The position numbers were made by a program, and so were the translations under genes. This document shows positions 1 through 33,083 of a stretch of 35,653 bases of DNA, piece after piece. Origin of the DNA: Psammoneis japonica (Eukaryota); assembly GCA_008632985.1 (NCBI GenBank), contig QPGO01000382.1, positions 1 to 35,653 of the forward strand, given 5' to 3'. The notes beneath the pieces were generated by a model. It had not been told where the DNA came from and ran no database searches. It was given only the letters and a program-made list of their open reading frames with translations. The stretch's first letter is position 1. Each line of letters opens with the position of its first letter.

Positions 1-3000
1 TGGACAGAAAACCTGCTGCAAAGGAGTGGCTGTGCCTGCATTGGCAGCAGCCGGCACTGCATCATCTTCCCACACAATGTGTGGGGGAGTGCCGCCAACT
101 CAATTTCTGAGCTTTTGATGCTGGTGACTCTCCAGGGATGTGGTGTGGAGAGGCAAAAGCCAATGTGTTTTGGCCATTTGCAAAAAAGTGCACAAAGAGA
201 GAAAAAGCCTCACTGGACTGTGATCTGGTGGGGCGGCATGTTGCTTTCAAGAAAAAAAGAATGACGCGGGTTTCTGCCGACCGAGCAAAATGTTGGCTCT
301 CCAGAAAGAAGTGGGCTGCCATTCACAGGGACCCAAGTCCACTGTTGCAGAATGTTTGGTCATTTTGTGCACACATGGTGCTTGCATTCCATGCAGCTCT
401 TGTGGCAGCTTTGGTGGCTGGGAGCAAGGTGAGACGAGAAAGCAGGGTGCGTGACTGACGCCCTTGACACCAACTTTGATCAAATCTTCAGCGGCTTGAT
501 CCTCAAGCCCATGAGGTGGGGCATCTTCATGAAAAGCTCCCTGCATTGATGATGCAGAGTTGGCACATGGGGTGGTGCAGGCAATGTTTGTTTGTTTGTT
601 TGCCCATCAGATTCTGAGGTGGACGTGTCTTTGGCCAAAAGGTGGCCCATGTTTGCTCTTGTGCAAACAGTGCACCTGCTGGCCCATGACTGCAACAATG
701 GAACAACAGAGTCAGTGCATTGGGCATTGCTTGTTTGTCTGTCAGGTGCATGGGTGGCACACATCTTGAGCCACAAGGCTGTGCATTCTTTGCTTTGTGT
801 GCACAAACAACACCAGCTGGCCCACACTCACAAAGGCACCACCGCCAGCACAGTTCCACCAAATGCCTCAATGGTTGTGTGAATGGCACAGAAATGGCAT
901 GTGGGTGTTGTTTGTTTGTCAAGCATGCAGAAGAGGAGTGAGGTGCATGTCTTGAGTTGCAAGGGGGCTTTTCACTCTTGCTTTGTGTGTGCACACAAGC
1001 AACACCTGGCTGCTGTGCTCACAAAGGCTGGCTCAACTCTGCCAAGTGCCTCAACAGCTGTTGCTTTGAATGCTCATTGGCTGTCTTGCATCTTGGCTGC
1101 ACAACCCACCACCATTTGTGCTCCAGCAGTGGGAGAGAGTTCCCCAAGCTCTGCTTTGAGTTCATGTGAACTCTCTCTCCTGGGACTTGTTCCAGTCTCA
1201 GGTGCACACATGCACAAAAAAATGCCCTTTTCAACAGAGTCAAGGGTGGAAAATCCCTTGTTTTGGGGGGCATTTTAGCAATTTCACAGGCAAAATGGCT
1301 AAAACAAGACAGTGATTTTTGCAAACGCGCACAATCAATGGAAAAACACACTCAAACGGCTTGAGTGTGAATGCCGAGCGAGCTCACTGTGCAAACAACA
1401 ACACAACACAATGGCCGAAATGCCATTTGTCAAACACAGTGGAGGTGGGGAGGCCTCCAACTTTCTTCACAAGTTTGTCACCCACATCAAACATGACACA
1501 CTTGTGAAAAAAAGGTCAAGGCTGCCCCACTGAGTTTTCAAGAAAGAACGGCATTTTTTGGCCATTGTTGTGTTGTTTGCACAGTGAGCACAGAATGGGT
1601 TGGCGTGTGTTTTTCCACAATTGAGTCACAAATGAACAAGACACCACCAGTCATTTTTGGTGCTTTTTGCACCAAATGCATGAAAAAAAAGCAAGAGATT
1701 TCCCACCCTCAAAACCCAATGAATTTCAAATGTGTTGATGTGGGCGTGCATGCAGAAAGGTCTTGTTTGTGCAATCATGTGTGCAAAACTGAGGATGCAC
1801 AAGATGACATGGGAGCTCAGTTTTCCAATGAGCAGTTTGTGGTCCCAAGCACAAGTTGCTCTCAATGGAATGAATGAAAACACTTGTCATTGACAAATGA
1901 GTTTTAGAAGACATGAGAAGATGTGAAACTCAGCCCATGCAATGGAGCCAGCTTTGGACACTTTTTCACCACTTTGATGACACAAATGACTGGGAGTGCT
2001 TGTGCCAGTTGATGGTTGATGACACGGAGGAAGCGCACATGGCAGTGTGAAAAAGAGCTTGCCCTCAGAGACCAACTGTGAGTGAAATGAGGCTCAATTG
2101 TTGATGCTGACAGATGTGTTTTTTTCTGCTGTGCTGCAGATTGCAACAGGCATTTTTTGTCATTGCCATTGATGGCACAGACTCTGTGAAATGCCATGGT
2201 CCTTGTCATGTCATTCAATTTCCACAAACTGAAAATGGCAGGCTGTCATGGTTGCTGAAAGCCATGGCCATTTGGCTGTGTTGGTTGGCTTGAATTTCAT
2301 CTTTGCAGCTGATGTTGAAGAAAACACAAAATGTTTGTTTTTTGTGAAAAAAAAACTACGAGGTCCCACCTGCCAGGGCTGGAACTCATCACAAAACTGG
2401 GTCCATCCTGCTGGATTTTCTTTCCACTTTGTTCTCTCCACAGTTCTTCCAGCAGGTCTTGTAGACTGGGAAAGGTCTGCACTGCCTTGCACCATCTTTG
2501 ACCTGCAAATCATCACTGAACACAGCCATGCAGTCTAAAACTTGTCCATCTCTTTCTCTCAAATGCTTCGCTCTTTCTTTGAAAAGTGCTGTGTTGACAG
2601 AATCTCTGTCTTCATTTTCTGTGTGTGTGTGCTTTGTGTCCTTGGGCAGCTGCTTTCATTTGTCATGTCCATGTCTGCAAGTGTGACTTTTCCATGATCC
2701 CAGAAGCGCTTCAGAAGCTTTCCCCATTTTGGGTCATCCTTGAATCTGTGCATGTCATGCAGCTCGTCCATGCAGCACTTCACCCAATCTTGGAATTCCA
2801 CACGTCTCTTTGCACAAAGGACAGATGTTGCAACCCACTGGTGCTCTGGCTGCCTGGAATCACCTGCAGACACTGCGTTCATCCCTCCGCAAGGTTTTCC
2901 CAGGCTGTGCTTTAATGTGGCTTTCAACACATCAAAGTGCATGGTTGTACATGCAATGCCATTCATTTTTATCTTGTGATGTGCAAGACTGCCTTGTGGC

Positions 3001-4670
3001 TTCTTCTGTCTCCCTCCGACACAGCTGAAAAAGCAACCACATGTCTTGACTGGTGTGAGCAGTGCAAGCTCCATTTCGGCCAGAGATGTGTGGGGCAAAC
3101 AGCGCACCCACAGCGTGCGACAAGCACTTTGTCAAGAGAGCACAAAATGGGTCAGAGCACAACACAAAGGAGGCAAGGATGACATGCGTTCATCTGCCAG
3201 CATTGGCCCTGCCGGGCACACAACCCTTGCCGGACCAAATGCAGCTTTGCAATGGGACCACTCACCCCGGGTCCACCGTTGGAACATTGGGCAGCCTGTC
3301 CCCTGCCGTCGATGTGGACTCCAGGGTTTTGAGGGGGTGGCAAACCTCTCTCCAACAAAAAAAAGGGAGGAGCTGGAGACAAAATCAAGAAGGCCCTGAG
3401 TGAGCACAGCTGCACGCACTGCAAGAAGCCTGGTGGTCTCCAGTTGTGTGGGTGACACTTTGGGCCAGCAGCGCACCTCTTTGGGTCTGCAGTTTGGCTT
3501 CTCCATTGTGGAGCTCACCACAGAGGATGTGATGGGGGCAAGGGTGGGGGTGCAGTGCCCAAAGCCAACCTCAAAGACTTGGGTGGAACTAGCTCACTTG
3601 TTCAAGCTGAGGTCTGACTGTGCCACATTTTTTCCAAAGCTTCTGTCCATGCCAAAAAATTGCTGCATCAAGTGGAAATCAAACCAGGAGTTGGCAGTGC
3701 TCAAAGACTCAATTGAAAATGACTGCTGTGAGCTCCTAGAGAACCCGGCAGCTGTTTTCCAGCATGGTGAAAGCAACCCCCAAAGCAGCCAAGAGGTGGA
3801 GCAAGTCTCCAGTGAGTTGGCCCAAGCTGAGGTTGAAGTCTTGCTGCTGGTTGCACTTGAGCCAGAGAGCCCAATGCCAGCAGCAGCACCACTGGTTGAC
3901 TGCTCTAGCACAACAAGTGGCCCATGTTGCAAGCACTGTGAACAATGATGGAAAGGGGCCAACCAAAGACAGTGCAGCGCAGCTCCTTTTGGGTGCCCCA
4001 GACCAGCCAGTGAGTGTTTGTGGCACAGACAGGAGGAGTGCATGCCAGTCAAACAAAAGAGCATTGCTGTGAGTGTGCCAGAAGCTGCAGAAGGGTGCAG
4101 TTCTTGGGTGAGGCAGTGGCACAAAAACAAGCGCCGTGCAGAGAGGGCTGCAGAGCTCTGAAAGAAAAAGAAACAGCAGCAAGTCACACTCAGTTCTGTG
4201 CAAAAATCAGTGCCAAGCTCTGTGGCAAAAAACCAAAAAACATCAGGCCCACATTGCAAGAGCACCGGAGAGAGCTCCTTTGGTTGTTGCCACAAGGGCT
4301 GGGTGGCACACAAGCTTGAAGCAACACCACACTGGGGGGCCAGCGGCCACAAGCTGGCAAACAACAGCAAAAAAAAGAGTGGCGGAGTTGGGCACAGTTG
4401 CCCATGGCTAAAGAAGACAGAGAAAAGTCGAGCTGTGTGCTGACTGTGAGCAGGGATGAGCGCCACACTGTTCACCACCCAAGCACAGCCACGTTCTTTT
4501 CTCTGCACTTTTCGACGTTGGCCTGAGGACTGGAGCATGCTGCCATTCTGCAACAGCCTCAGCAGACCAACATCTCTTGAAAATCAAGTGTGGCAAATGG
4601 GTAACAGTCCACTGTCACTGCCAGTTTGGGTTGATCCGGCTGGTGGTGGCATTGAAAAAGGTCAGCACAA
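1..4670. mobile_element. Heavily decayed repeat/transposon-derived block, depleted of TpA and CpG (runs off the window start)
   Basis: Only about 15 TA dinucleotides seen by eye in 4.67 kb; TG/CA-rich; six-frame ORFs are Cys/His/Gln-rich and almost Tyr-free; contains a helicase relic. Boundaries approximate. Confidence 0.6.
2570..2960 (-). pseudogene. Relic of a PIF1-family (SF1B) DNA helicase, possibly from a Helitron-like element
   Basis: Minus-strand KPCGGMNAVSAGDSRQPE resembles PIF1 motif III (xPFGGxxVxxxGDFxQLxP), followed by ELHDMHRFKDDPKWGKLLKRF (motif IV-like, LxxxxRxxxDxxxxxLLxxxR). After a frameshift comes QLPKDTKHTHTENEDRDSVNTALF (NxxxDxxN motif). Confidence 0.65.
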
Positions 4671-8836: not shown

Positions 8837-10378
8837 TTAGTAAGTGCACATCCACCTTGCGACGCAACTTATCAAGCTCTCGGCGTCTTCTTGCCATTCA
8901 CCATCTCGCTGTGGTTGCTCAGAACAATCCAGCTCAATAACATGCAGCTTTGAATCCCTAGCACCCACTGCTGTTCGACTCTTGTCTATCATGACGGGGT
9001 CTGACCATATCTCCCCGTCAACTTTCCATCGACAACTTTCCTGTCCGCCCTTTGATAGTTTGATGATGTCCCCGGCTGTGGTACAGACAACAATTGAGTC
9101 ATTCTCCAATGTCAACGGTTTCGAGTAAACCACTGAAAGGCAATCGCACTCCCAGCACAAGGATAAATCTGAACTGTTGACACACCGAACAATTCCATCA
9201 TGGCAACCAAACACAATCGTTCCATTTGACAAGAGTGCTGGTCCGCTAAAGATGGGCTTGTTTGATACCTGACGTTTTCTTTCGGAGCCACTTCTGACAT
9301 TGACGGCATGGAGATTGCCACAGACATCACCGAAAAGCACCGAATTGTCACTTGTTGTCAAAAGATCAGAGTGCACCAGGTACTCAACACCAGGAATGTG
9401 TGTCACCGTAGATCCTTTGACCATTGCCAAGCCTGCATCCCAGTCGCTAAAGGTGCAAAGGCAACGATTCAGTTCCAGACGGAAGTTCAAGTACAGCAGC
9501 ATCACTGCCATCTTGAGCACTCAGAATATGCAGGCGTTTCCCGGAGACAACGTAGACTAACGAATCGACATGGACTGGCTGAGATTTAATCATTCCATTC
9601 AATTCCCTGGTCCATTTTGCTTCTGATAAATCCAGTTTCACAGCCGCTACAATCCCACTCTCCAGTTCTGAATCATACCCGTACACAATTATAGAGTCAT
9701 TAACGACCGCCAAATCTGCTTGAATGCTACACCCCAGCTCGTAAAGTGATGCTACCTCGTTTCCACTTACAATCCTTTGGATGATGGCACCCTGGCAGGC
9801 ACCGTAAATGTCTACGCCGTGTGCCAGTGGTGCTGCATCTACGCAAGCTTTGAACTGGACTGCCACATGTCCCTCTCTGACAAACGCAGAATGTCCCTTT
9901 TCTCAAAGGGCTCTTGTGTCTGAATTTCATTCTCTGGTTGCCTTTGCTTCAAGCATCGTTCATCATGAATCAAACCCTTGAGTTCCCTAATGCTGCATGC
10001 GTTCAGAATGTGCCATGCTGTCATTTTGTTTCCACATTTCCCAGTTGCTTGCAATTTGTACAAGAGTGTAATTGCGAGGGCAGAGTCTCCTCCCATTTCA
10101 ACAAAAGACTTGGCGGCACCAAGAACTTGTCCGCCAAGAACCTCTTGTAAAATAAAATCAACTTTGTCTTTGCATTCTTCTCCATCCTTTTGCTTGTCTT
10201 TTGATGAAATCTCTGTTGCATGTTGCCGCACTCGAGCTCGCTTGATTTTTCCAGTGCTCCCAGATCGAGGAAGAGACTTGACGCATGACGCATCCTTGGG
10301 GACCAGATTCCAAGGAACTGCAACCGTGTTTCTCATTTTCTCTCTACCAAACAGCACCTGCTGTTCCACCACCAACAT
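8837..10378 (-). pseudogene. AASDH-like (adenylation-thiolation-PQQ beta-propeller) gene; 3' half recognisable, 5' half degenerate
   Basis: LPRSGSTGKIKR (A10-like end of an adenylation domain); SFVEMGGDSALA (phosphopantetheine site, ~10081-10105); PQQ-type repeats KACVDAAPL, KPIFSGPALL, VFGCHDG, DGEIWSDPV, VGARDSKLH. Frameshifts at ~9860 and ~9460-9520. No recognisable upstream A domain in the TpA-free sequence 10380-11550. Confidence 0.7.
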
Positions 10379-11554
10379 GCCAACATTGGAATTTACAGTG
10401 CATGCCGCGCAACATGAAATCTTGTGAGAACATCCATGACAACAGCTTCAAAGTGGCAGAGTGCCACTTTGCAGTGGACAGCTCACCACGGTTGATGGCA
10501 GCAACATGGGCTTGGCTCATGGTGGAACAACAGGATGTCAGAAACCTGGAGAGGCTCATCCAATCTCAAAAAAGGAAAAGTGAGAGCAATCTCACCGGAA
10601 AGTGGAGAGGACACCAGCATGTGAAAATTGAAAATTGCACGGGAAGGACAAGCATTGGCTGACATCATGTCAGTTCAGCAAACGCAGCCCTCTCCGATTC
10701 CCACGCTCATCCAATCAATGAAGACAAGAAAGAATCCAGGTTTCATTCCCATGTGACGGGTCCGTTTTCATCACACCACTCATCATCGTGATGGCGCGCA
10801 TTTCGCGAGAAGAATGAGAAAACCCCAAAGACGTGGTGGCAAATTTCATTTTGACCAAACCCTCCAGGGAATGCATGTGTGCACATGTGATTGACATCGA
10901 CCGGATGGAGCTGGCAATTCCAGTGCAACAGTGCATGAGCATTTGAATCCACACACACTGCATCCCTGGGAGAGGAAAAAATTGGACACGCCAAGAGGAA
11001 AGGCAATGACCATGGGCCTCAAAGCGGCAAGAAGAGGGGCCCAACATGGGTGTTCAAGAAAAGAGCAGCAAATGGACTGAAAAGCCACACTGACATCACC
11101 CATGCAGGACTTTGATGGCACTCAGACCGCGTGTGTGAGGATCATGTGCTCCTTGCAAGAAAGCTCACCATTGAAAGGTGTGGCAACACAGGCCAGAGCA
11201 CAAGACAATCCTCAGCCACCAACCACAGTCAGCACAAATGCAGAGAAGGTGGGAAGTGCAACCACAGGACAGCGCAGAAATGGCGTGGCAACAATGGCAC
11301 CAACGCACGAGACACTCCCGGCTGCGAAAGCAGACCACATTGGGGGGATTTTCAATGTAGACTGACAGGGGGAGAAAAGAAACCATTCGATTTTCATCAT
11401 TGGCATCTCCCAGGAGACGCCTCCGACAGCACCATGGTGTCTCCCATCCTGCCAGACAATGAGGGATCCCTTGGGCTGGCCTCGTTCCCGAGTGTCCAGC
11501 TCATCTCGTCTGTTGTCCGTCCTTCAACCCATTCCGCTCCTGTGGCTTTGTTCA

Positions 11555-14500
11555 TCGTGACGATCCTTCAAGTGGGATTGCACGCAATCTCGTACAAAAC
11601 GCAAATGGCTCTAAAATGTTGACAGCAACTAAAAACAGATGTTGCATCTTTGTCCCCGTACAAATTCTACAGCAGCCACACAAAATTGAAAAATTCACTC
11701 AGCCTCTCGATCTTCGTTCTCCGCGACGCATCGAACAAACTTGAACTCAAAGTCGATGGCGCAGCGGTGCATCTTGAATGTTTTGACAAGCTTGTCGAGC
11801 GCAATCGGTCCAAATTCATGGACCCGCTTGGTGTCCTCAATGCATCCATTGTCAATTGCATGGCAAGCCTGAATGCACTGTCGTGCTCTCTTTGCAAACT
11901 TGCACATGCGTTCCAGCATCAACACCTCTTCTGACAAGCAATGCTCAACTGACTTCTTGAAGTTTTCTTTCCCTCGTTTCTGTGACAGGTCAAGGTTTCG
12001 GTGCTCACCTTTGGAGCATGCCCAAAGATGCTCCATTCCCTCCCCTGCTAATTCTGCATGGCATTTTGGAGTCAAGATGACTCGCACTCCCATTCGACGC
12101 GCATGATGTTGAAGCAGTGTCGTTTCGTTCGCGAAGTCTTCGCAGGAGGCAAGCATCTCTGCGGGCTCGGTGTTTTCCATGTGGTTCCCATGCTCATCCT
12201 TTGTCCCCCCTTTTGTGTGCTTTGGGCTTGCATCAATCAACCCCCTTTCTGTCAAGACTTGCAACAAGCCTTTGGGCTTGCCGCTCCAACCGGGCAATGT
12301 TTTCTGTGCTCTCTTTTTGGTTGATGTGCCGGCATTCTCACAGTCTTTCTGCAGATCCTTCTTTGTGGTGCCCTTTAGAACCACACAGGTTGGATCATTG
12401 GCCTTCAAGTCATTTTCTAACTCTTCCTTGAGTTTGTCAACAGTCTTCCATTCATCGGTCGGCATGTCATGCTTTCGTCACACCCGTTCTTCTGGGTCCA
12501 TCAGGTGAGGTCCCTCGTCATCGTCCTGAAATGCCATTTCTTGCGTCTCACCACTTTGCAATCGTTGAGAATTCTTGTGCTCTCCAATGCATTTGTCTGT
12601 GAGGGTGCTGCTTCTCATCTTGCATTTTCCACCCCACCCCAGGTTCATCTTGTCGGTCGACAACCCGTCCTCCCGCTGCTTCGAATGACCCGCCGAGTGG
12701 TCAAAAAAAAAGATGTGCTCAAATTCCGGACACATTTCATCCAGAACATCAACACAGTCTTCCAGCTGCGTTGCCATGTGGTTGCAATTCCAATGACCCT
12801 CGTTGTTCTGGCCGCACTCGAACTTGACCATGAACGGGCTCGTTTCCAAATCTTTCTTGGTGGCTGATCCTCGGGCTTCTTTCGCTGCTTCTTCGTCACT
12901 GCACTTGGTCCCTTTCCTGTTCTCATTGATTCGCTTGAGTGATTCTTCCTTGAGCGCTTGGATCAAGCCAAACTCGCGACATGTGAAAAGCGAGAGCATG
13001 ACTCCAAGACCTTCGTCCTTCGGAACAAGAGCGGTCTCGCCATGGGGTCCAACCCAAGCCCTGCCAGTCAATGGGAATTGCTTGAAAACAGCCTCATCTT
13101 GTCCCCGTGAAATGACTGGCTTTTCACCCGCAGGAAACCAACAGCTTAGATGGCCACCGCATTGCTTGGCTTTCAAATCGTCGGATTGCGCAATCTCATC
13201 ACGAAAGCCACTCCAGTCGTCGACGTGAAAATCCACGAACACGTTCCCGTCTCGAGTGAACAGAGAGCTCTCACCACGAGTTGGAACAAGCGACTGGTTC
13301 ATGAGATCAGTTGCCTCCTCCAATGGAATTTGAATCCATCTGCAGCACCGCTTCTCCAACTCGAGACACTCCTTGTTAAACTTCTTTCGATGCGACTTCG
13401 TGGCAGGCTTCTCGTGTCCATCAACATGAAAGCCTTTGAGCCCATGCGTGTGCTCAAATCCCAAGAGACGCATCCAACGGGCTGCTGTTGATGCAGAAAG
13501 TGACCTGAGTTTACACTGTTTAAGAAACAAACTTTTGGCTTCTTCCTCTTCTGCAGTCGGTTCTCTGGATTTGCCCAACGACTCCATCGCGTTCTCAAAG
13601 TCGTCATCATCAACTGCCACAACATCTTTCTTTGCGTTCAGCATCAGCGCCGGTGTGATTTTGTTGTGAACATGCTCGTGCATCAGTTCAACAGAGAGGT
13701 CCTTCAAGTTCTTGACTCCACAGCAAATAAATGCATTCTTCACCTCAGGATTCTGACTGAAGAAGGGCGGCAGTTGCGATTCGCTTCGGTTCCGGTGCTG
13801 AGGAAAGCAGTCACCTGCCTCAGCAAGCCGCTTGTGCCACCGCTGCACCACCTGCCAATTGGTTGTCGCAGTGATGCCATCTTCTTTTAATCGAGAAATG
13901 GCATGTTGACAGCACTGACCCCAACTCATGTTGTCCTCGATCTCCCTTCCTTCACCCTTGAGATTGTCAAGGGCCGCCTGAAGGGACACCATGATGCAGA
14001 GTGCACGATGACGAATGGACACCTTTTCAAACTCAGTTGCAAGTTTCTTGTCATCCTGGTCAGGCAAAACAGATTTACATCCTTGTGGATGATTGACAAC
14101 AGCAGAAAGAACGTTGATCCTGTCTTGTATGACCGACTTGACATCTACATCCGCGGGGTAAACCGACGTCGGCGCGAAGATGTTGCGTGCTCTCGTCGAA
14201 TCCCAACAGTTGAAGCGAGGAGCACCTTGTTGCCTTGCAGTCTCCAACTCTTCCTCAGACATGTCGTTCCCATTATTTTCACTTTCGATGCGTTGTTTCT
14301 TCTTGGCTCGTCGGGCCTTTTCTGTATTCTGGATGTCGGGATCCGTCTCCGAAAACTCTGCCAGCATGTCTGCTCTTCGCACCGAGCCTCTGCCCATTTT
14401 CTTTCAGACCGCCCCACTCCTCAGCCAGCCTTCAACATTTGTTGTTGTTGGCGGACGAAGAAACCGACTAGGAACTCCAACAGTAACAAGAAAGAACGTG

Positions 14501-15017
14501 TGAGGAGCTCTTTTTCCATTGAGCTCGCAACTGCACTCTGTCTTGTGCAAGCTCACACCGTCGGCGACAATGTTGTTTTCTGTCGTAACATTGGAAACTC
14601 CAGCCACATTTTTGTAAATCTTCTTTATTTCTCTGCCCATCACACGAACATTCTCATCGGTTAAACCAAATTTAGCATTGCAACACTCCGCCCAAAGGTC
14701 AGTGGACATCCAACAGTTGTGAAAACGCTTGTCGCCGAAGACGAGCTGCACGTGCTTGGCAACGAACGATTTTCTGATGTCGGTCATGATGATTTTTTTT
14801 GTTAGTGGTTGCAGGGAGCTTTACTGATATGTTTAGAAGGTGGAACCGCACAGTAACAAAAAAAGTCATGAGTTTTGGGGAAATTGTGGCCATCATCGTG
14901 AAGCGACCGCTTACGTGGTATTTCTCGTGCTTCGTAAACTTCCCTCCGAGAAATAAACTTCAACTTGATGACGTGTTATACTAATTACGTAGAAATCTAC
15001 TTAAAGTTTCGTCACGA
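11555..15017 (-). mobile_element. IS630/Tc1/mariner-like DNA transposon (~3.46 kb), inactivated
   Basis: Contains a DDE transposase reading frame and is bounded by a candidate imperfect inverted repeat, 11555..11601 versus 14972..15017 (34 of 46 positions match, one gap). A clean TSD was not found. Confidence 0.65.
11695..14787 (-). pseudogene. DDE transposase pseudogene (~1030 codons, two in-frame TGA stops)
   Basis: ORFs 14404..14787, 12478..14397 and 11695..12465 share one frame, separated only by TGA at 14404-14406 and 12478-12480. Motifs HVDGHE, GQDEAVF (D1), FFFDHSAGH (D2) and LTPKCHAELAGEGMEHLW (E) match the long-spacer IS630/Tc1-like family (YxDGHE, DE, FDxSxxH, PKxHxELxxxExxW). Confidence 0.85.
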
Positions 15018-16800: not shown

Positions 16801-19800
16801 TCACGCCGCAACGTCTAATATCGTGTTGGTGCTCTCCATTGTTATCTTGAAAGATGCATCCTTTGGTTGATTTTTCTCCAGACAAAATCGGCTAGAATCC
16901 TCTGCAAGACTCTCACGCTGAAATCCTTCTGGATGCTTTGAATGTATCGCTTCTATTTGCTTACGGAGGCCTGAGTTCTCAGGATACCAGACGTTCATCG
17001 ATTCTTGAACATGCGGCATTCGGCTGGCGATGAGTTTGTCATAGAGTTCCTTCCAACGCCCTCCATCACACAGGACGTTTTTCGGATTTAAAGGAAAGGT
17101 GTAACCGCCATCAATCTTCTCGCTGAGGAAGTCTTGTAATTCATCTACGTTGAGATATTTCCAACACACGTTCCCTGGAACGGTGTCTGATATGACCAAG
17201 TATTCGTCGTCTAGATCCTGAGGAAAGTAGTAATTGAAGCACTCTGCTCCGTGCCTTACTGGACCGGCGGTACTTGTAAGGCGGTGTATTGTGTTTTCCA
17301 TTGTACTGTACGACACTGGGTCTCCAAATCCCAGCTGGGGGACCTTGGGGTGAAAGCCATCATTGGCCGAATCCCTGAGCACTTCCAGCCATCGGCTAGT
17401 CCAGCTGTGAGGTCGTGGAGGGCTTTCGAGTATCTCTTCGATCTTATCTACACACCATGTCAGCACCTCCAATTGATCAGGCGGGAGCGGCGCAGAGTAT
17501 CTCACATTTCGTGTACCAATCAAGAAGCAGTCAAAGTCTGACACCACCGGCAACACACGGCCATTTTCTTCGTACGCCATTACGAACTCAAATGGACTCA
17601 GCGGGTCGTCCGTGCCGTATTGCAGAACGACTGCTTTTGGCATGCCTTTGACGTTCCTGGTTGACCTGTTGCGCAGCGAGGCAAAATTCATGTCTTGAAA
17701 GGGAGGAAGGGAAGGACGTCCCGTATCAAATTCAGAACCTGCTCTCCGAGTGCAGTCTTGCCTAACAAAACAAGCTTCCCAGAAAACACGGACAGATAGG
17801 TCCATCCCATATGACTGCGGAGAATAGTCATCAATATAGATGATGGAGGGATCAGTGACGTCCAACAGCATGCTCTTAAGCGCATCCCGCTGTGATGACT
17901 CACTAGCACGATCGTTTGAAAGTATCTTCGAAGCCTGTCGGACAGTCTCGATCATGTCTTGACCGACGGCCTCCAACTTGGCGGCAGCAACCTCTCTCGC
18001 ACGTTTATTCTTGAAGAATAGCCGAACTCTACCGTCCTTTGGAAGCGTCCGAACTTTGTACTTGTGCCTGTTTTCGTTGATCTGTAGGAATGGGACAAAT
18101 CCAGACAGCTTTCCACGCTTCGCGGACTTTCCTTTTATGTCTAGTCCTTTCCCCGTGCCTTCGTTCAGCATCATTCTACGAATCGCATCGAAGCTTGTCG
18201 GTCGCCAAATACTAAATACCATTGGAGCGAGATCGGTCCCTCGAAGTAGATCAGATATCACGTCCCGATCAATGCCATCCTGAAGGCTGTATGCCTTCTC
18301 TTGTGTGACAATGTTGACAGCGCTGAGGATCTGATAGCGAGGATCAACTCGACGAAATGTGGTCGACCAAATCTTTACTCGATCGGCTTTGCGAAGCGCA
18401 GCAGCAGGACGAACGGGCACTGAGGCTCGCCTGTGAATATCAAGACTTCCAGCGCTAAATGACTTGACGTCGCCCGTGGATGCGCTTTTTGCGGGCATTG
18501 AAAAAGACTGGCTTCTTTCTACCTTTGTCGAAAAAGAAAAGCCATCGTCCTTGTCATTTGTGGACGACACTGTTGTTTCGCCTATAGTGTCTACCGGTGT
18601 CTCTTCAAACTTCGCCAACTTTTCCAGGTCATAGGTATACCGTTCACTTTTTGGGTTGAACCGATAAAAAAGATGCTCATCTTTCAACGGATGCTGTCTA
18701 GAAACGTGCTCGAACAAGTTAAAGGCTCTCGCCAACAACTGGCCAACGTGCACTGCGTCTTCACGCGAAAGTGATGCGTCTCTCGAAACAAGAAAGTCCA
18801 CAGCGTCGCTGCCTACGAATGTATCCTTGTAGACACGTAAATGATGGCGATTCTCCGAAGTCTTGACTCCTTTTCCAAACTCAATAGCAATTTCGTTGAG
18901 CTCTCTCAAGTCCACAACAGTGTCGTCCGTGATATCATCGTGGGCCCCCCTAGGTTTGAGTTCTCCCATGTTGACAAAGCGGTAGAAGAGGTACGCATCT
19001 TTAAACTCGTGTTGCCGCACGCAGTGCTCAAACAAATTAAATGAGGTGGCCATCTGTCGTCCAAGCACTACAGCATGTTCACGAGTCTCTGCTAAGCCCT
19101 CCTCCACTAAAAAGTCGACCGCCTCTCTTCCGATGAAAGTGTCCTTGTATGTCCTCATGCGATACTTGTTGTCTGCAACCCTGACATTGGCTCGAAGACT
19201 TTGAGCAATCAAATGCAGCGAATCGGACTCGCTCGTCATGTCACTTGCAAAGGATTCTTTTCGACGTGCCTTTTCTTTCTCTGAAGTAAATTTGAAGAAC
19301 AGATAGTCATCTTTAAAGGAATGATCGCCAGTCACGTGTTCAAAGAGATGCATTTCGGATGCCAGCCTCCGACCAAGTACCACGGCTTCCCGCCGAGTCT
19401 GAGCAAAACTGGAATTGACGAGGAAATCGACAGCTTGGCTCGCAACAAATGTATTCCGGTACGACTTGAAGCGCCAAACATGGGTCCCAACATGGACTCC
19501 TTTACGAAATGCATTTGCCACCTGAAGCAAGGATGGAGTGTTGCCGGAATTGCCCACGCTGCTCACATGGCTGTGATCAGAATATGCGTCTGGCAACAAC
19601 ACGTCGTGCTGCGAGTCTTCGTCATCGGGTGTAATACGCCGTTCTGGAGGAACAAATCTATAAAAGAAGTAGTCGTCTTGAAAATCATGCTCGTTGCAAA
19701 CGTGTTCAAAAAGGTTGTACTGATGGACAAGCTTCCTCCCCAGCCTGACTGCGTCCTTTCTTGTTTCGGCAAGCTTGGACTTGATCATGAAATCGACCGC

Positions 19801-20889
19801 CTTGGAACCCACAAAAGTCTTTTTATATACCTTTAATCGGTACATGTGATCTTTTATAGGCATTTCATTCTCAAACACAAATGCAGCCTCTTGCAGCGGA
19901 GGGCATGACTTGTCATGTTGCTCGGCGTGGCTCGTGTCGTTATGGTCAGCATCGGAATGCGCGAATCTCTCGTCTTGAGGAGTAAAGGAGTAAAAGAGAT
20001 AGTCGTCTCTAAATTCGTGCTGATTTAGCACGTGCCGAAACAGATTGTATTCTCTGGTGAGTGCTCTCCCTAGTTCCACAGCATGGTGTCTGGATCGGGC
20101 CATTCCTGATATCACCATGTAGTCGACCGCGTCGCTTCCAATGAAAACATTATTGTACGTCTGAAAATGATACCGTAGATCTTTTGTTTCGATTTCATTT
20201 TCAAATGCCTTGGCCAATTCACTCAAGTCTTGAAAGGATGATGCCGAGTTCAAGGACAAGGATCCGAGAGAGCCTTCCTCCGAGTCGTCATCAAGCAATG
20301 CATGTCCATACGTATGCATAAAACACCCAACTTCGTCTTGGATGGACACGAATCGATGATGCTTTGGAACAAATTGAAAGAATAAATATTCGTCTTTAAA
20401 CGAGTGCTGTCGACAAACATGCTCCATCAAATTGTACTCCTTCATGAGGGCATTTCCAATCTGCACAGCATGCTTTCTCGAGTCTGCGAGCTTGTTTTTG
20501 ACCAGAAAATCGACCGCCTCTCTAGCTACAAAGCAATTTGGATAATTCCGAAAGTGATACTTGTGATCCGATACCTTCATGCCGTTCTCAAATATTTCTC
20601 CAATGCGCATTAGACTCATACCGTCCAACGAGCTCGCCAGGGAATATCCCGATTCGGATCTAGTAAAGTCGTCTGTAAAGCTGCCGCCTCTCGAGTTGAT
20701 GGAAATATCTCTGGGCGGTGAAAAGCTCAGACCGTTTTCATAATGACTTTCTTTGTTAGTTTCGTGAGAGACAACCAATGTCGACATGGATGATAAGCGT
20801 GGATCACTGACGGGTGGTGGTGGTTCGGACGCGTGATCAAGTACTTCTAGTCGATCATCTTGCTTGCAACATTGAAAGATGCGCTTCAT
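16801..20889 (-). CDS. Six tandem DEP domains fused to a C-terminal anthrax EF/CyaA/ExoY-like (class II) nucleotidyl cyclase domain
   Basis: Uninterrupted 1362-aa ORF. Six repeats of the form xxYxxxFxG/AxxAVDFLV...R..AV..G..L....LFEHV...H.FKD.YLFYRF (DEP; ~18650-20590). C-terminal motifs WRPT...GKGLDIKGKSAKRGKLSGFVPF, PVVSDFDCF and VRHGAECFNYYFP. Confidence 0.88.
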   Translation of the reverse strand: MKRIFQCCKQDDRLEVLDHASEPPPPVSDPRLSSMSTLVVSHETNKESHYENGLSFSPPRDISINSRGGSFTDDFTRSESGYSLASSLDGMSLMRIGEIFENGMKVSDHKYHFRNYPNCFVAREAVDFLVKNKLADSRKHAVQIGNALMKEYNLMEHVCRQHSFKDEYLFFQFVPKHHRFVSIQDEVGCFMHTYGHALLDDDSEEGSLGSLSLNSASSFQDLSELAKAFENEIETKDLRYHFQTYNNVFIGSDAVDYMVISGMARSRHHAVELGRALTREYNLFRHVLNQHEFRDDYLFYSFTPQDERFAHSDADHNDTSHAEQHDKSCPPLQEAAFVFENEMPIKDHMYRLKVYKKTFVGSKAVDFMIKSKLAETRKDAVRLGRKLVHQYNLFEHVCNEHDFQDDYFFYRFVPPERRITPDDEDSQHDVLLPDAYSDHSHVSSVGNSGNTPSLLQVANAFRKGVHVGTHVWRFKSYRNTFVASQAVDFLVNSSFAQTRREAVVLGRRLASEMHLFEHVTGDHSFKDDYLFFKFTSEKEKARRKESFASDMTSESDSLHLIAQSLRANVRVADNKYRMRTYKDTFIGREAVDFLVEEGLAETREHAVVLGRQMATSFNLFEHCVRQHEFKDAYLFYRFVNMGELKPRGAHDDITDDTVVDLRELNEIAIEFGKGVKTSENRHHLRVYKDTFVGSDAVDFLVSRDASLSREDAVHVGQLLARAFNLFEHVSRQHPLKDEHLFYRFNPKSERYTYDLEKLAKFEETPVDTIGETTVSSTNDKDDGFSFSTKVERSQSFSMPAKSASTGDVKSFSAGSLDIHRRASVPVRPAAALRKADRVKIWSTTFRRVDPRYQILSAVNIVTQEKAYSLQDGIDRDVISDLLRGTDLAPMVFSIWRPTSFDAIRRMMLNEGTGKGLDIKGKSAKRGKLSGFVPFLQINENRHKYKVRTLPKDGRVRLFFKNKRAREVAAAKLEAVGQDMIETVRQASKILSNDRASESSQRDALKSMLLDVTDPSIIYIDDYSPQSYGMDLSVRVFWEACFVRQDCTRRAGSEFDTGRPSLPPFQDMNFASLRNRSTRNVKGMPKAVVLQYGTDDPLSPFEFVMAYEENGRVLPVVSDFDCFLIGTRNVRYSAPLPPDQLEVLTWCVDKIEEILESPPRPHSWTSRWLEVLRDSANDGFHPKVPQLGFGDPVSYSTMENTIHRLTSTAGPVRHGAECFNYYFPQDLDDEYLVISDTVPGNVCWKYLNVDELQDFLSEKIDGGYTFPLNPKNVLCDGGRWKELYDKLIASRMPHVQESMNVWYPENSGLRKQIEAIHSKHPEGFQRESLAEDSSRFCLEKNQPKDASFKITMESTNTILDVAA

Positions 20890-21376
20890 TTCTTTTATTT
20901 AAGTCAGTACCAGAAGTCAGATACCTTGAGCGCCTCAATCTATGAGAACTTAGCTAGAAGGGGAGTCAAAGAGAAAGAATAGATAAGGCATGCACAAGCA
21001 ACACACACTCTTGAAAAATGCTCTTGCGTGTTGCGTGTTCCATCGCGAAGTTGCTCGCATGTTCGAGTGAAGGTCACGTTTGTCTTTGTTTATTGTGACA
21101 TTTACAGAGATGTAGAAAATCGTATTATGACATAAGAAGGTCATATTCAATATAACGTAATTTAGAAAGCGTCCGATTCTTCAATTAACATTAAAATAAA
21201 AAGGAATGTCAAAGTCATTTTGATAGGTTACAGAGAAACCGATCACAAAAAATGACGCTCCGCTTGACAAAACTGCTTCTTTCCCTTTCCCCGCCACAAA
21301 CATCGCATTACTTGAGTTGGCTATTGCATCTGACCATCGCTACTCCCCAATTCAACTTCACAAAGACGACCGCGAC

Positions 21377-22761
21377 ATGAAGAATGGGTACAGCAGCAGG
21401 CCCCAAAACCGGAGCGTTGTCGTTCATTGGCGTGCAGTGACGTTTGTATTTTGATTGGTCTCTCGTTTCGTGGATTACACACAAACTTGAACGTGTTTCA
21501 CTTGTTCATTCCAAAGTTTCTCGGCGAACAGACTCTAAGAGCGTTCGAAAGCAACGGTTTGTTTTCCAGCTCGTATAAAACAAAACTACCAGAAGCTCTT
21601 TTGCCCGTTACTTTTTCAGGCTGTTGCACCGGACACAGTACGATATTACATGCGACATGCCTTACAGAGAAAGCTTGCAATGTTTCGCATTATCCTTTTT
21701 CCTCACCACAAGAGGCGTCATACTTTAAAAGGTCGGTGCTTAATGGTACAGAGAAGATGGAGTTGAGAAGAATTTGCATGCAAGCTGCAGAGCGAAAACC
21801 GCCTCCCCTGCGGTGGTGCTCATCCCAAAATCTGCCGACAGATGAGAAATATCCCATGGGTTGTAGTCAAATTTCCATGGGCGGTGGGTCCGGGCCGTAC
21901 GACCGAGTCTTGTTGTTTCCGCAAGGAAAGCTAGCATTTTGTGGAATACCCAAAGCCGGAGTCACGCAGTGGATACAGTTTTTGCGATTTACCTTTGGAG
22001 CAAAGGATTACCAAAGCCCGCCATACTCCAAATCAGACGTGGGATATGCCATGTTTGATACTATGTGCAAAGAAATACGAGACGAAATTTGGAATGATGA
22101 GTCTTGGACCAAGGCGATCTTTATTCGCAACCCGGCTGAACGTTTGTTGTCGGGATATCTCGACAAGATTGAGGGCAATCAAAGATTCGTTGGAGCGAAC
22201 GTGACGTTTGCAGACTTCGTTGATTTTCTTGCAATGAAGCAAGTACTCAGATTAGATTCAGACAAGGGCCGATCACAAGGCATGTTCACTGGACTCTCCT
22301 GGAAAACTGATCCGCACTTTCGACCGCAGGCTTGGGCTTGCGGATTGTCTGAGGAATTGGACAGGTTTCAATACGTCGCGTCAATGGACCGTGTCGCCTA
22401 CCATACAAAATCATTGCTACAGCAAGTAAATATGTGGGATTCCTTTGGACGTCACTATCGTTTGTCAAATGGGACAAATTCAAATGACACCGCAAATGTA
22501 AAGTGGCCTCCCGATCCTCTGCAGCAACAAGACGAGGAACTGGGTTTCCAGCAACAAGTTGGTAAGATTACCGACTCGGCAGGAGCGCACAACACTGGTG
22601 CATCAAGCAAGATCGAAAAATACTATACTCCAGAACTAATGAAGAGAGTACGAGATCTGTATGCGATGGATTTTGCGTTGTGGGATGCACTGCAAGTCGC
22701 CGACAAGGAAGGCTTTGTACGCGGCAAAGACATTGTGAAGAAACTGAACCCAAAGTGTTGA
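21377..22761 (+). CDS. Golgi-type carbohydrate sulfotransferase (Sulfotransfer_2/CHST-like), copy 1
   Basis: FCGIPKAGVTQW (5'-PSB), FIRNPAERLLSGYLDK (3'-PB) and DPHFRPQ. Alignment with copy 2 puts the start at ATG 21377 (MKNG), with a 1-nt deletion near 21450. Confidence 0.85.
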
Positions 22762-23697
22762 ATGCAAGAATAGACATTTTGCATTCGTTGCTTCTCCATT
22801 CCGCTCGCTCTTACTTGCTACAGGTTGACTCGCTCACTTTGATCGTGCAATCACTGACGCCGACTAAGGAGCTGTTTATCCTTGCAGCTTTACTTTTTTC
22901 AAGTACGACAAAACAACGCTGCTGTTCCGTGACCGTCTTCCGCCAAACGTGAAGCTACAAACAAAACTATGATTCAAAAAGCTACGTCGACGTTATTGTT
23001 ATCGCTTTTGCATTGTTTTGGATAAGATCGAAGAAAATGAAGTAGTCCTTCAAGTGGGGTCTCAAACACCCGCTTCCTCGAATGGTGCACTTCCCTGAAT
23101 TCTGGAAAAGATGATCTCTCTACGAGCCACGTCAGTTTCAACTAACAAACCCTTCAGCTGCTACCAATACTACTGCCGACACTGAAATAAGTTGGCATTT
23201 TTACTGGTTCGGCCTCTGGAAGCGAGAGTCACGATGCCCTCAAACCCTACTTTCTAGAGATAAGTACTGCATTATTTTCTAGAGTGTTTCTAAAATTACT
23301 CGCTCATCGGTTCATTGGATATTCAAAATGTGAGCAAACGTACTATGTCATGGATTCCATAAAAAGAAAGCGAACCACTGCATAGACATGAATTACATTC
23401 GCTAATGGATATGATAATATTTCATTCCGCGACCAGAAATATCGGAGACATTCGAATTATTTAACGCAAATGACTGCAAGTGACAAATCCGGGATCACTC
23501 AATCACAGCATTTGTAATTCGTAATCCGACATCACATCCGCTTCGCCGATCCCAATTTATGATAACTTCTATATTTCGCACCCTCCCGCCTCCCAAACCT
23601 CCCGCGGCTTTCCTCATTCGCTTTCACGCCTCGAAAAACGAGTCGTTTATTTTGAGTAGCCTATCGTATTTGACGATCGCTTGAAGCAGAACGTGAC

Positions 23698-25131
23698 ATG
23701 ACGAACGGGCAAAGCAGGCAAAAATATCAGATCGTGAATTGGCAGACGTTGGCGTTTGCGAGTTTGATTGGTCTCTGTTTTCATGGATTCCAAACGAGCT
23801 CAAGTTCCTTTCACTCTTTCATTCCAGAGCTCATAGGCGAACCGGCTCTGAGAGCGTTGGAATTCAACTATTTGTTTTCAAGCGATACTTCTCGCGAAAG
23901 TTCGCTTGAAACAGAGCTGCCAGATGCTCTTCGACCGGTGTCGTTTTCAGGCTGTTGCAGTGGACATTTTTCGGATTTCCATGCAACATGCCTTACAGAG
24001 AAAGCTTGCAATGTCTCCTATTATCCATTTTCATCTCCGGAAGAGGCGTCATACTTTAAAGGATGGGAACTAAGCGGAAAAGAGAAGATGGAGTTGAGAC
24101 AAAAATGTCTGGAGTACGCCGAGAGAAAACCTCCTCCTACACGATGGTGTTCATCAGAGAAACTTCCAACAGATGAGAAATACCCCATGGGTTGTAGCAT
24201 GAATTCCATGGGCGGTGGTTCAGGGCCTTATGATCGTGCATTAGTATTTCCGCAAGGAAAGCTGGCATTTTGTGGCATCCCCAAAGCCGGAGTCACGCAG
24301 TGGCTTCAGTTTTTGCGATTTACCTACGGTGCAAAGGATTACCTAAGCGTACCATATTTCAAGTCAGATGTAAGTTATTCTAGGCTCGATGTTTTGAGCG
24401 AAGAAGTGAGAGACGAAATTTGGAGTAACACATCATGGACCAAGGCGATCTTTATTCGTAACCCGGCTGAACGTTTGTTGTCTGGGTATCTTGACAAGAT
24501 TGAGGGCAAACCAGTACATGTCGGTCACGCGAATGTGACCTTTGCAGAGTTCATCGATATCCTTGCAATGAAGAACATCACCAGACTGAATTCAAAGAAT
24601 GGCCCATCAACAGGAATGTTCACTGGGCTGTCATGGCATACTGATCCGCACTTTAGACCACAAGCTTGGGCATGCGGATTGTCTGAGGAATTGGACATGT
24701 TTCATTACGTCGCATCAATGGACCGTGTCGCCTTCCATACAAAATCATTGCTGCAGCAAGTAAATATGTGGGATTCCTTTGGACGTCATTATCGTTTGTC
24801 AAATAATGAAACAAACTCTATATTGACACCATGGAAAGTGTGGCCTCCCGAACCCCAGCTACAACGAGAAGGGGAGGCAGAACTGGGTTTCCAGCAACAA
24901 GTTGGCAAGATTACCGACTCGGCGCGAATGCACAATACTGGTGCAACAAGCAAAATCGACAAATATTATACTCCAGAGCTTATGAAGAGGGCGCGAGATG
25001 TTTATTGGATGGACTTTGCTTTATGGGATGCACTACAAGAGGCAGACAAGGAAGGCCTTGTACACGGCAAAGACATTGCAAAGAAACTTAACCCAAAGTG
25101 TGGAATGCAAGAGTCGCCTTTAAAAAGCTAG
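23698..25131 (+). CDS. Golgi-type carbohydrate sulfotransferase (Sulfotransfer_2/CHST-like), copy 2
   Basis: Intact 477-aa ORF with an N-terminal signal anchor and the same PAPS-binding motifs; clear tandem paralog of 21377..22761. Confidence 0.9.
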   Translation: MTNGQSRQKYQIVNWQTLAFASLIGLCFHGFQTSSSSFHSFIPELIGEPALRALEFNYLFSSDTSRESSLETELPDALRPVSFSGCCSGHFSDFHATCLTEKACNVSYYPFSSPEEASYFKGWELSGKEKMELRQKCLEYAERKPPPTRWCSSEKLPTDEKYPMGCSMNSMGGGSGPYDRALVFPQGKLAFCGIPKAGVTQWLQFLRFTYGAKDYLSVPYFKSDVSYSRLDVLSEEVRDEIWSNTSWTKAIFIRNPAERLLSGYLDKIEGKPVHVGHANVTFAEFIDILAMKNITRLNSKNGPSTGMFTGLSWHTDPHFRPQAWACGLSEELDMFHYVASMDRVAFHTKSLLQQVNMWDSFGRHYRLSNNETNSILTPWKVWPPEPQLQREGEAELGFQQQVGKITDSARMHNTGATSKIDKYYTPELMKRARDVYWMDFALWDALQEADKEGLVHGKDIAKKLNPKCGMQESPLKS

Positions 25132-29751: not shown

Positions 29752-29848
29752 CCAAGTCAGATTAAGTTTGGCGCTAGATCAGAACTTTTGTGACCAAAAA
29801 AATGAAATGCAAAGAGGAAAATGACCGAACTCCGCCCTGCCTACAGTA

Positions 29849-32828: not shown

Positions 32829-33083
32829 TACCCAGCCAGAGGGCGATAGGTCTCAACATTTAACTAGTGCTATTGCCCTTTAGTTTTTCAAAATTCAGTA
32901 GAAGCTACATACGCGTGACCAGTACAAATCCTCTACGGTGTAACATACTGTACCAGCAGTATTTTGAGGGTTGCGATTTCTTGTGGTCACTGCACTTTTC
33001 ACAATTATTTTAGAAGACACATTTCATGTGTATTCTACACCAACAAAAGCAACAACAGTCACCACAGCAACTGATTGTTCACG

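Follow-up and report, generated by a model that had tools for sequence, protein, structure and literature searches.

Near-complete loss of TpA from discrete domains of a diatom-like genome points to TpA-directed A:T to G:C hypermutation

The window analysed here, a stretch of 35,653 nucleotides of Psammoneis japonica DNA (contig QPGO01000382.1 of assembly GCA_008632985.1), contains a degenerate DNA transposon, predicted to be Tc1/mariner-like, whose transposase gene has been largely emptied of the dinucleotide TA (TpA), and two further kilobase-scale domains with the same depletion. The evidence described below indicates, with high probability, that a DNA-level mutator specific for TpA converts A:T to G:C in discrete, presumably silenced domains, and that this is the same phenomenon as the one found in Bigelowiella natans. 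TpA-directed hypermutation has previously been described only in that one alga, in a 2026 preprint (Mettrop et al., bioRxiv 10.64898/2026.01.13.699255). As the preprint measured TpA-only A:T>G:C hypermutation, the statement in the initial annotation of the window that no described mechanism does this no longer holds.

Results

Three domains of the window are depleted of TpA

Between positions 11670 and 14070 (2401 nt), 9 TA were counted, as compared to 146 expected from the base composition (observed/expected ratio (O/E) 0.06) and 89 expected at the normal density of the window (37.2 TA/kb; Poisson P(<=9) = 1.7e-27). The same interval contains 112 CpG (O/E 0.76). These counts agree with the initial annotation, which had reported about 9 TA in about 2.4 kb with plentiful CpG. 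A two-state model over all TA versus CA/TG sites of the window called three erased domains.

1–4668, no strand assigned: TpA-erased domain A, continuing beyond the start of the window; TA O/E 0.05, CpG O/E 0.20, CA/TG O/E 1.8
10159–14070, no strand assigned: TpA-erased domain B; 17 TA among 742 TA/CA/TG sites; CpG O/E 0.67
30857–32581, no strand assigned: TpA-erased domain C; 3 TA in 1725 nt; CpG O/E 0.29; GC content 0.51

The fraction TA/(TA+CA+TG) was 0.013, 0.023 and 0.008 in domains A, B and C, respectively, and 0.16–0.22 elsewhere, where the CpG O/E was 0.90–1.00. Overall, the erased domains exhibited a TA O/E of 0.03–0.10, a CA/TG O/E of 1.4–1.8 and a higher GC content than the DNA outside them, and their edges were spread over a few hundred bp in 500-bp windows. 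No DNA similarity among the three domains was found by self-blastn, and 38 open reading frames (ORFs) tested from domains A and C and from 10715–11523 gave no credible Pfam match, the sole match having an E value of 0.049.

The normal stretches of the window exhibited a TA O/E of 0.50–0.56, a CA/TG O/E of about 1.2 and a CpG O/E near 1.0. For eight host ORFs, the Tyr content was 1.1–3.7% and the TA O/E was 0.30–0.68, far above the values of the erased blocks. The contrast with the flanking host genes had been proposed and is confirmed, although the baseline TA is itself somewhat low. A weak genome-wide action of a TpA mutator would explain the low TA O/E in the normal stretches.

The conserved Tyr residues of the transposase read His or Cys

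The transposon that overlaps domain B comprises the following features. Run X1, which is cited for the stop codon, is a public sequencing run, one of three (X1, X2 and X3) of the same sample in one study.

11555–15017, minus strand: degenerate Tc1/mariner-like DNA transposon of ~3.46 kb; its proposed borders are those of a terminal inverted repeat with imperfect arms
11695–14403, minus strand: main transposase frame from translation, 903 codons with one internal stop
14404–14787, minus strand: N-terminal part of the transposase, which continues here in a different frame (frameshift near 14403) and resembles the N-termini of the homologues
12478–12480, minus strand: in-frame TGA, read as CGA (Arg) in an X1 contig (position 12480, A>G)
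11555–11588, no strand assigned: left terminal repeat arm, within the erased domain
14984–15017, no strand assigned: right terminal repeat arm, outside the erased domain, with its TAs kept

The main frame contains a single Tyr in 903 codons (0.11%), as originally noted, and the first seven homologues of the transposase contain 2.5–5.1% Tyr. For a residue-by-residue comparison, the frame was aligned with 28 homologues, of which five are database proteins and 23 are ORFs without interruption from metagenome loci, and a column was regarded as a Tyr column if at least 70% of the 28 homologues had Tyr, which yielded 17 columns. At these columns, the window frame reads His (CAY codons) in eight cases, Cys (TGY codons) in seven and Phe in two, and Tyr in none. 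In contrast, 199 of the 255 other equally conserved columns (78%) were kept (Fisher P 4e-11).

The substitutions at the other residues were selective as well. Conserved Ile was kept in only three of eight columns, with replacements that include Thr, Met and Val, as expected from the ATA and T|AT contexts of its codons. Conserved columns for Lys (15 of 18), Asn (3 of 4) and Trp (9 of 11) were mostly kept. The 8:7 ratio of His to Cys indicates no strand bias, and the two outcomes were not clustered along the frame (7 runs, compared to 8.5 ± 1.9 expected). The presence of both CAY and TGY products on the coding strand bears out the earlier conclusion that both DNA strands were hit.

The changes are also visible in the family motifs, where FEYGxNNEGYWTYxHM has become FECGQNNEGHWNCNHM, EGIEYSW has become EGMEHLW, and ARxYxxAY has become ARQCIQAC in the window frame. 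Three of the four motifs in which the initial annotation had recognized His or Cys at Tyr positions are thereby supported. The exception is the Cys in PKCH, which is native, since the homologues likewise read PKCH.

Across the family, as sampled in 80 metagenome loci, the TA O/E was 0.40–0.81 (median 0.63) with a median Tyr content of 4.1%, as compared to 0.09 and 0.11%, respectively, for the window ORF. As judged from the alignment, the TA loss in the transposase is due to mutation and not to native composition, because the Tyr columns were all lost and yet 199 of the 255 others remained intact. A native or selected composition, in which a functional element avoids TA for nuclease escape or because of the TA target preference of mariner elements, could be argued from the under-representation of TA throughout the window (O/E ~0.55 in normal DNA). 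However, none of the 17 conserved Tyr was kept, as opposed to 78% of the other conserved residues; the transposase carries a frameshift and an internal stop; the family norm of TA O/E is 0.40–0.81; and non-coding and non-transposon DNA was erased as well. We regard this explanation as refuted by the homologues, with next to no probability left to it.

TpA loss is separable from CpG decay

In the three domains pooled, the dinucleotide densities relative to normal DNA were 0.09 for TA, 0.46 for CpG, 1.39 for CA/TG and 0.98 for AA/TT. Per kb, the losses of TA (33.9) and CpG (28.8) are roughly balanced by a gain of 58.6 in CA plus TG. Only 2 of the 68 surviving TAs have a 5' A, as compared to 28% in normal DNA (P 3e-7), suggesting that ATA/TAT may be a preferred context. 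The density ratios of ApT and GpC in the erased domains were 0.73 and 1.31, respectively; by a rough count, conversion of ATA/TAT and GTA/TAC accounts for about half of the ApT loss.

The transposon exhibited a TA O/E of 0.09 while its CpG O/E was 0.77, which upholds the proposed distinction between this process and CpG decay. The CpG O/E was low (0.20–0.46) in three of the four erased sub-blocks. The converse pattern was seen in family loci from other metagenomes: L072 and L054 exhibited a CpG O/E of 0.03–0.08 with a TA O/E of 0.52–0.54, and these two together with L014, L044 and L012 exhibited a CpG O/E of 0.03–0.30 and a CA/TG O/E of about 1.6 with normal TA (0.51–0.55). The hosts of these five loci methylate and decay CpG in the element without erasing TpA. 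Because the TpA and CpG losses are separable between the transposon and its relatives elsewhere, the TpA loss appears to have come first and to have been fast. Within the transposase, the internal TGA arose by CpG decay and not by the TpA process, since an X1 contig reads CGA at this position.

The co-occurrence of CpG decay in three of the four sub-blocks would speak for polymerase eta-like error-prone patch repair at WA (W, A or T), triggered by T:G mismatches that result from deamination of 5-methylcytosine (5mC) in methylated repeats. Among the WA motifs, TA is the one most strongly mutated in antibody hypermutation. However, AA was untouched in the erased domains, as seen in the AA/TT ratio of 0.98, and conserved Lys and Asn were kept in 15 of 18 and 3 of 4 columns, respectively. 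In addition, the transposon has lost ~90% of its TA at a CpG O/E of 0.77, so the TA loss does not depend on prior CpG events, and the values for L072 and L054 indicate that CpG decay alone is insufficient for TA loss. These observations leave the repair explanation very improbable, and the corresponding alternative in the initial annotation was not borne out. Only TpA is targeted, on both strands, in the direction from A:T to G:C, locally, and independently of CpG decay and faster than it.

The erased domain is offset from the transposon borders

Domain B does not coincide with the transposon. The 5' 947 nt of the element (14071–15017), which include one terminal repeat, were spared and contain 30.6 TA per kb, and the N-terminal continuation of the transposase (14404–14787) has lost TA only in part (18 per kb). 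On the other side, the domain reaches 1.4 kb to the left of the transposon and includes 1143 nt of unrecognisable DNA (10412–11554), in which a single TA remains, and 253 nt of an ACSF4-like gene.

8930–10411, minus strand: ACSF4-like gene with a truncated 5' end (what remains is the last part of the AMP-binding domain, the carrier domain and the beta-propeller), identified by Pfam, by the homologues P0266 and P0267 and by tblastn

The upstream 253 nt of this gene (10159–10411) contain 2 TA, as compared to 9.4 expected (P 0.004). The gene lacks its first ~420 codons, and its alignment with the homologues is broken into three segments that lie in two frames and meet near 9869–9875 and 9451–9459; a tblastn search with P0266 and P0267 found nothing of the missing AMP-binding half upstream of 10411. 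It is either a pseudogene or a gene with short introns that has lost its 5' half. The Tyr test was uninformative for its erased part, since the sole homologue Tyr there aligns to Gly.

The two terminal repeat arms of the transposon lie on opposite sides of the domain border. Of the seven TAs in the outside arm, the inside arm reads CA/TG at five, TA at one and another dinucleotide at one, and no change in the reverse direction was found.

These results qualify the earlier description of the process as transposon-targeted. The local loss inside the transposon stands; the sparing of its 5' ~950 bp and the inclusion of 1.4 kb of flank do not agree with that description. Because the erased domain is offset from the transposon borders, "silent-domain-directed" fits better, and the offset suggests targeting by chromatin rather than by sequence homology, which would set the process apart from fungal repeat-induced point mutation (RIP).

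Domain C occupies the interior of another element.

29846–32831, no strand assigned: second element, probably a transposon, with a perfect inverted repeat of 29 nt at its ends (29846–29874 and 32803–32831; self-blastn)

The ends of this element keep their TA (50 and 92 per kb; GC content 0.39–0.41), while its interior is domain C, with a GC content of 0.51. The DNA hit in the window comprises the mariner-like transposon, the element with 29-nt repeats, unrecognisable DNA and part of a truncated host-like gene. Inside the 29-nt repeats (29875–29900 and 32745–32800), several copies of AAATCTGTAC and its complement are present, and this short subterminal motif looks like a transposase binding site.

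Read data and independent copies of the transposase

In run X1, 74% of the sampled window words were present. Its contigs cover erased DNA at 1–1466 with 2 differing letters and at 2252–4018 with 4, and the word depth was 54–62 in erased DNA and 57–65 in normal DNA; a division into two strand-specific versions of half depth was not seen. Run X2 gave no cover over 1–4669 and a word depth of 0–1.1 over 10006–14674, and the normal stretches were covered; from run X3, nothing aligned to the window. The erased domains may be absent from that library, and the missing cover was not counted as evidence. Among the 30 differences listed between the assembly and the reads, three are TA/CA or TA/TG alternatives, which hint at recent activity.

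The summed word depth of X1 was 378 at 2002–2668 and 542 at 11340–12006, as compared to ~60 for single-copy DNA, and X1 contigs end abruptly at 2077, 2115 and 11901. It appears that the erased domains contain short repeats of high copy number.

The Tyr content was also surveyed in the 149 best representatives of the transposase family (150 listed of 2647 from a library of 1.84 billion proteins). Eight of the 149 contained only 0–1.1% Tyr, the next lowest value being 2.2% and the median 3.9%. These eight proteins, which originate from JGI and ENA metagenome contigs, read His or Cys where Tyr is conserved, in a pattern that varies from copy to copy. Five of them were compared with the DNA of their nearest normal relatives (67–77% identity). 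Among the 86 TA-sensitive codons, defined as those whose residue a TA change would alter, 60 had changed at all, as compared to 151 of the 704 other codons, and 37 of the 86 carried exactly the predicted residue.

The adjacent TG/CA alternatives that appear when the run contigs are compared with the assembly are a possible product of strand-specific misreading, and could reflect an artefact, raised already in the initial annotation, in which a modified base at TpA is misread as CA/TG by sequencers or base-callers while the true sequence is TA. Such strand-wise misreading would yield two half-depth versions, and since none was seen in X1, where contigs of 1.2–1.8 kb run through erased DNA at normal word depth, a read artefact is disfavoured. 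Furthermore, the Tyr-to-His/Cys pattern recurs in the eight proteins of separate JGI/ENA metagenome assemblies, and the signal described in the Bigelowiella natans preprint consists of new mutations in Illumina-sequenced mutation-accumulation lines. The artefact explanation is largely refuted and hardly credible, and the depletion persists in the reads, with the reservation that X1 is possibly the assembly's own data.

Classification of the transposon

The transposase family comprises 2647 representatives at E<=1e-3. No Pfam family matched the window ORF at E<=0.01, and no Pfam transposase family matched five homologues at E<=1, suggesting that the family is a distant, unprofiled branch. A sequence profile search of the PDB likewise gave nothing below E 0.5. 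An AlphaFold model of the homologue P0003, built with the 28-sequence alignment (predicted local distance difference test score, pLDDT, 79), aligned with chains of Mos1 at Z scores of 14.1–14.3 over 249–304 of 336–342 residues (root-mean-square deviation 9.5–18 Å), and the next unrelated entry had a Z score of 7.3. Foldseek found no match to this model at E<=0.001 (best E 0.5), and the Atlas lead for the family was DDE_3 (score 0.90). On the fold match between the homologue model and Mos1, the element is classified as a predicted Tc1/mariner-like DNA transposon, and reading of the motifs places candidate DDE residues in GQDE, FDHS and CHxE. The match agrees with the architecture of IS630-Tc1-mariner transposases, in which a helix-turn-helix region for DNA binding is combined with an RNase-H-like DDE/D catalytic domain.

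The 34-nt terminal repeat arms are 74% complementary and fit the ends of a 3.46-kb element. The dinucleotides flanking it are CA and GT, with no TA target duplication visible, and six X1 contigs diverge past 15001.

Discussion

Proposed mechanism

According to the mechanism that we propose, a mutator would convert A:T to G:C at TpA, whichever strand is hit, so that TpG or CpA results. Its action would be confined to kilobase-scale, presumably silenced domains that contain dead transposons and their surroundings, where nearly all TpA would be removed over time at a pace exceeding that of ordinary methylated-CpG decay in the same DNA. In coding sequence, Tyr would become His or Cys and Ile would become Thr, Met or Val, and stop codons would never be created. 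We infer a silent chromatin state for the erased domains and a role of the process in genome defence.

As for the chemistry, our first choice, held tentatively, is enzymatic deamination of adenine at TpA: an adenine preceded by T would be deaminated to hypoxanthine in DNA and read as G at the next replication. Our second choice is that the thymine of TpA is oxidised by a JBP/TET-like enzyme to 5-hydroxymethyl- or 5-formyluracil, which mispairs with G and thereby gives T>C, with the same outcome. 5-Hydroxymethyluracil in dinoflagellates favours TpA, and 5-formyluracil is mutagenic. The symmetric products on the coding strand, eight His (T>C) and seven Cys (A>G), are compatible with oxidation, and because of this symmetry the attacked base of the pair is not readable from the sequence alone. 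The Bigelowiella natans authors favour adenine deamination, themselves by proposal only, and we consider thymine oxidation improbable.

Several points weigh against the proposed mechanism. The 80 family loci used as the baseline were fetched by two Tyr-containing peptide patterns taken from a five-sequence alignment, so the baseline is biased to intact copies. The origin of domains A and C is unrecognisable, hence "foreign DNA" is unproven for both. The terminal repeats of the transposon were not necessarily identical originally. X1 is possibly the source data of the assembly and is then not fully independent, and none of the 16 X1 contig pieces listed lies wholly over the transposon, where the support comes from bin depth and from variant contigs that are equally TA-poor. 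Finally, adjacent TG/CA double differences make up 8 of the 30 assembly-versus-read events listed and fit an ancestral CG equally well; only residue 693, which is Ile in the homologues, clearly indicates an ancestral TA. The reading of these double differences as independent hits on ancestral TA was therefore dropped.

Comparison with known systems

In mutation-accumulation lines of Bigelowiella natans, two integrated viral regions acquired ~6e-7 mutations per site per generation, ~1000 times the background, and 230 of the 231 mutations in them were A>G or T>C, all at TpA according to the authors (bioRxiv 10.64898/2026.01.13.699255). The same preprint describes 324 TpA-poor coding sequences, among which domains of DDE endonucleases and reverse transcriptases are over-represented. 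It also describes a large nucleocytoplasmic large DNA virus (NCLDV) region that is single-copy and transcriptionally silent; since this region is single-copy, repeats would not be required in that alga. The authors propose, as a proposal only, an ADAT2-like deaminase as the agent, and their Discussion states that the preference of ADAR for a 5' U matches TpA.

As far as the preprint describes the algal process, the two have in common the restriction to TpA, the products TpG and CpA, the discrete regions and the long-term footprint of CpA/TpG-rich, TpA-poor DNA. They differ in the host, which here is a diatom-like stramenopile and there a chlorarachniophyte, and in the target, which here is a mariner-like transposon with its flank and there a giant-virus or virophage insert. 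In addition, the erasure here is near complete (TA O/E 0.03–0.10, compared to 0.45 in the NCLDV region), CpG decay co-occurs here, and the rate is inferred here from a footprint whereas it was measured there. Since the footprint is present in this diatom-like genome as well as in eight independent environmental sequences of the transposon family, the process is more than a peculiarity of one strain, and ordinary cut-and-paste transposons are within its reach.

Searches of the literature yielded no account of TpA hypermutation from diatoms or any other stramenopile. Hoguin et al. 2023 (PMC9998398) describe, in the part of the work relevant here, a RID-like DNMT4 in diatoms without a mutation signature.

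Like fungal RIP, the process produces local, heavy transitions that kill mobile DNA, with a dinucleotide preference and on both strands. In contrast to RIP, which is C>T mostly at CpA and enriches TpA, TpA is destroyed here and GC rises, so the description of the process as the reverse of RIP is sustained. RIP itself was rejected as an explanation, since the TpA excess and AT enrichment expected from it were not found: the TA O/E was 0.03–0.10 and the GC content was higher inside the domains.

Methylated-CpG decay in transposons resembles the TpA process in its products (TpG and CpA) and occurred in the same blocks, where it made the in-frame stop. The TpA process, however, acts on TpA, and the two are separable (TA 0.09 with CpG 0.77 as opposed to CpG 0.03 with TA 0.54). 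Deaminase-like transition clusters on selfish sequences are also known from animal ADAR and APOBEC hypermutation; unlike ADAR, which edits RNA, and APOBEC, which gives C>T, the process here has made heritable changes to the DNA of a cut-and-paste transposon and of the sequence flanking it.

A more general possibility, which we put forward as speculative and on balance doubtful, is that a TpA editor is an old defence across the stramenopile-alveolate-Rhizaria (SAR) protists, at least in Rhizaria and stramenopiles, which acts on single-copy as well as repeated DNA, outpaces 5mC decay, is bounded by the state of the chromatin and not by the invader's sequence, and causes the generally low TpA of these genomes. 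Candidates for the editor would be genes that footprint-bearing lineages share and that are missing from diatoms in which the copies exhibit CpG decay only. A natural editor of double-stranded DNA that converts A:T to G:C at a defined dinucleotide would be of interest both to the biology of genome defence and to base-editing technology.

Other genes in the window

The gene content of the window is eukaryotic and intron-poor. It includes a TIR-LRR gene, a MYND/RING/TPR gene and the following features.

16801–20898, minus strand: six-DEP-domain protein of 1365 aa in a single exon, with a long C-terminal region without Pfam match (Pfam)
21334–22761 and 23674–25131: two tandem sulfotransferase genes (PF03567), with 78% DNA identity over 1385 nt

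The best match of the MYND/RING/TPR protein has 57% identity, and its matches with organism names are from diatoms, except for one from Heterosigma (a raphidophyte) and a distant oyster protein. The best named match of the window transposase is from Fragilaria crotonensis, with 36% identity. The tandem pair of sulfotransferase genes represents a recent local duplication in which TA is normal, indicating that duplication per se has not attracted the TpA process here.

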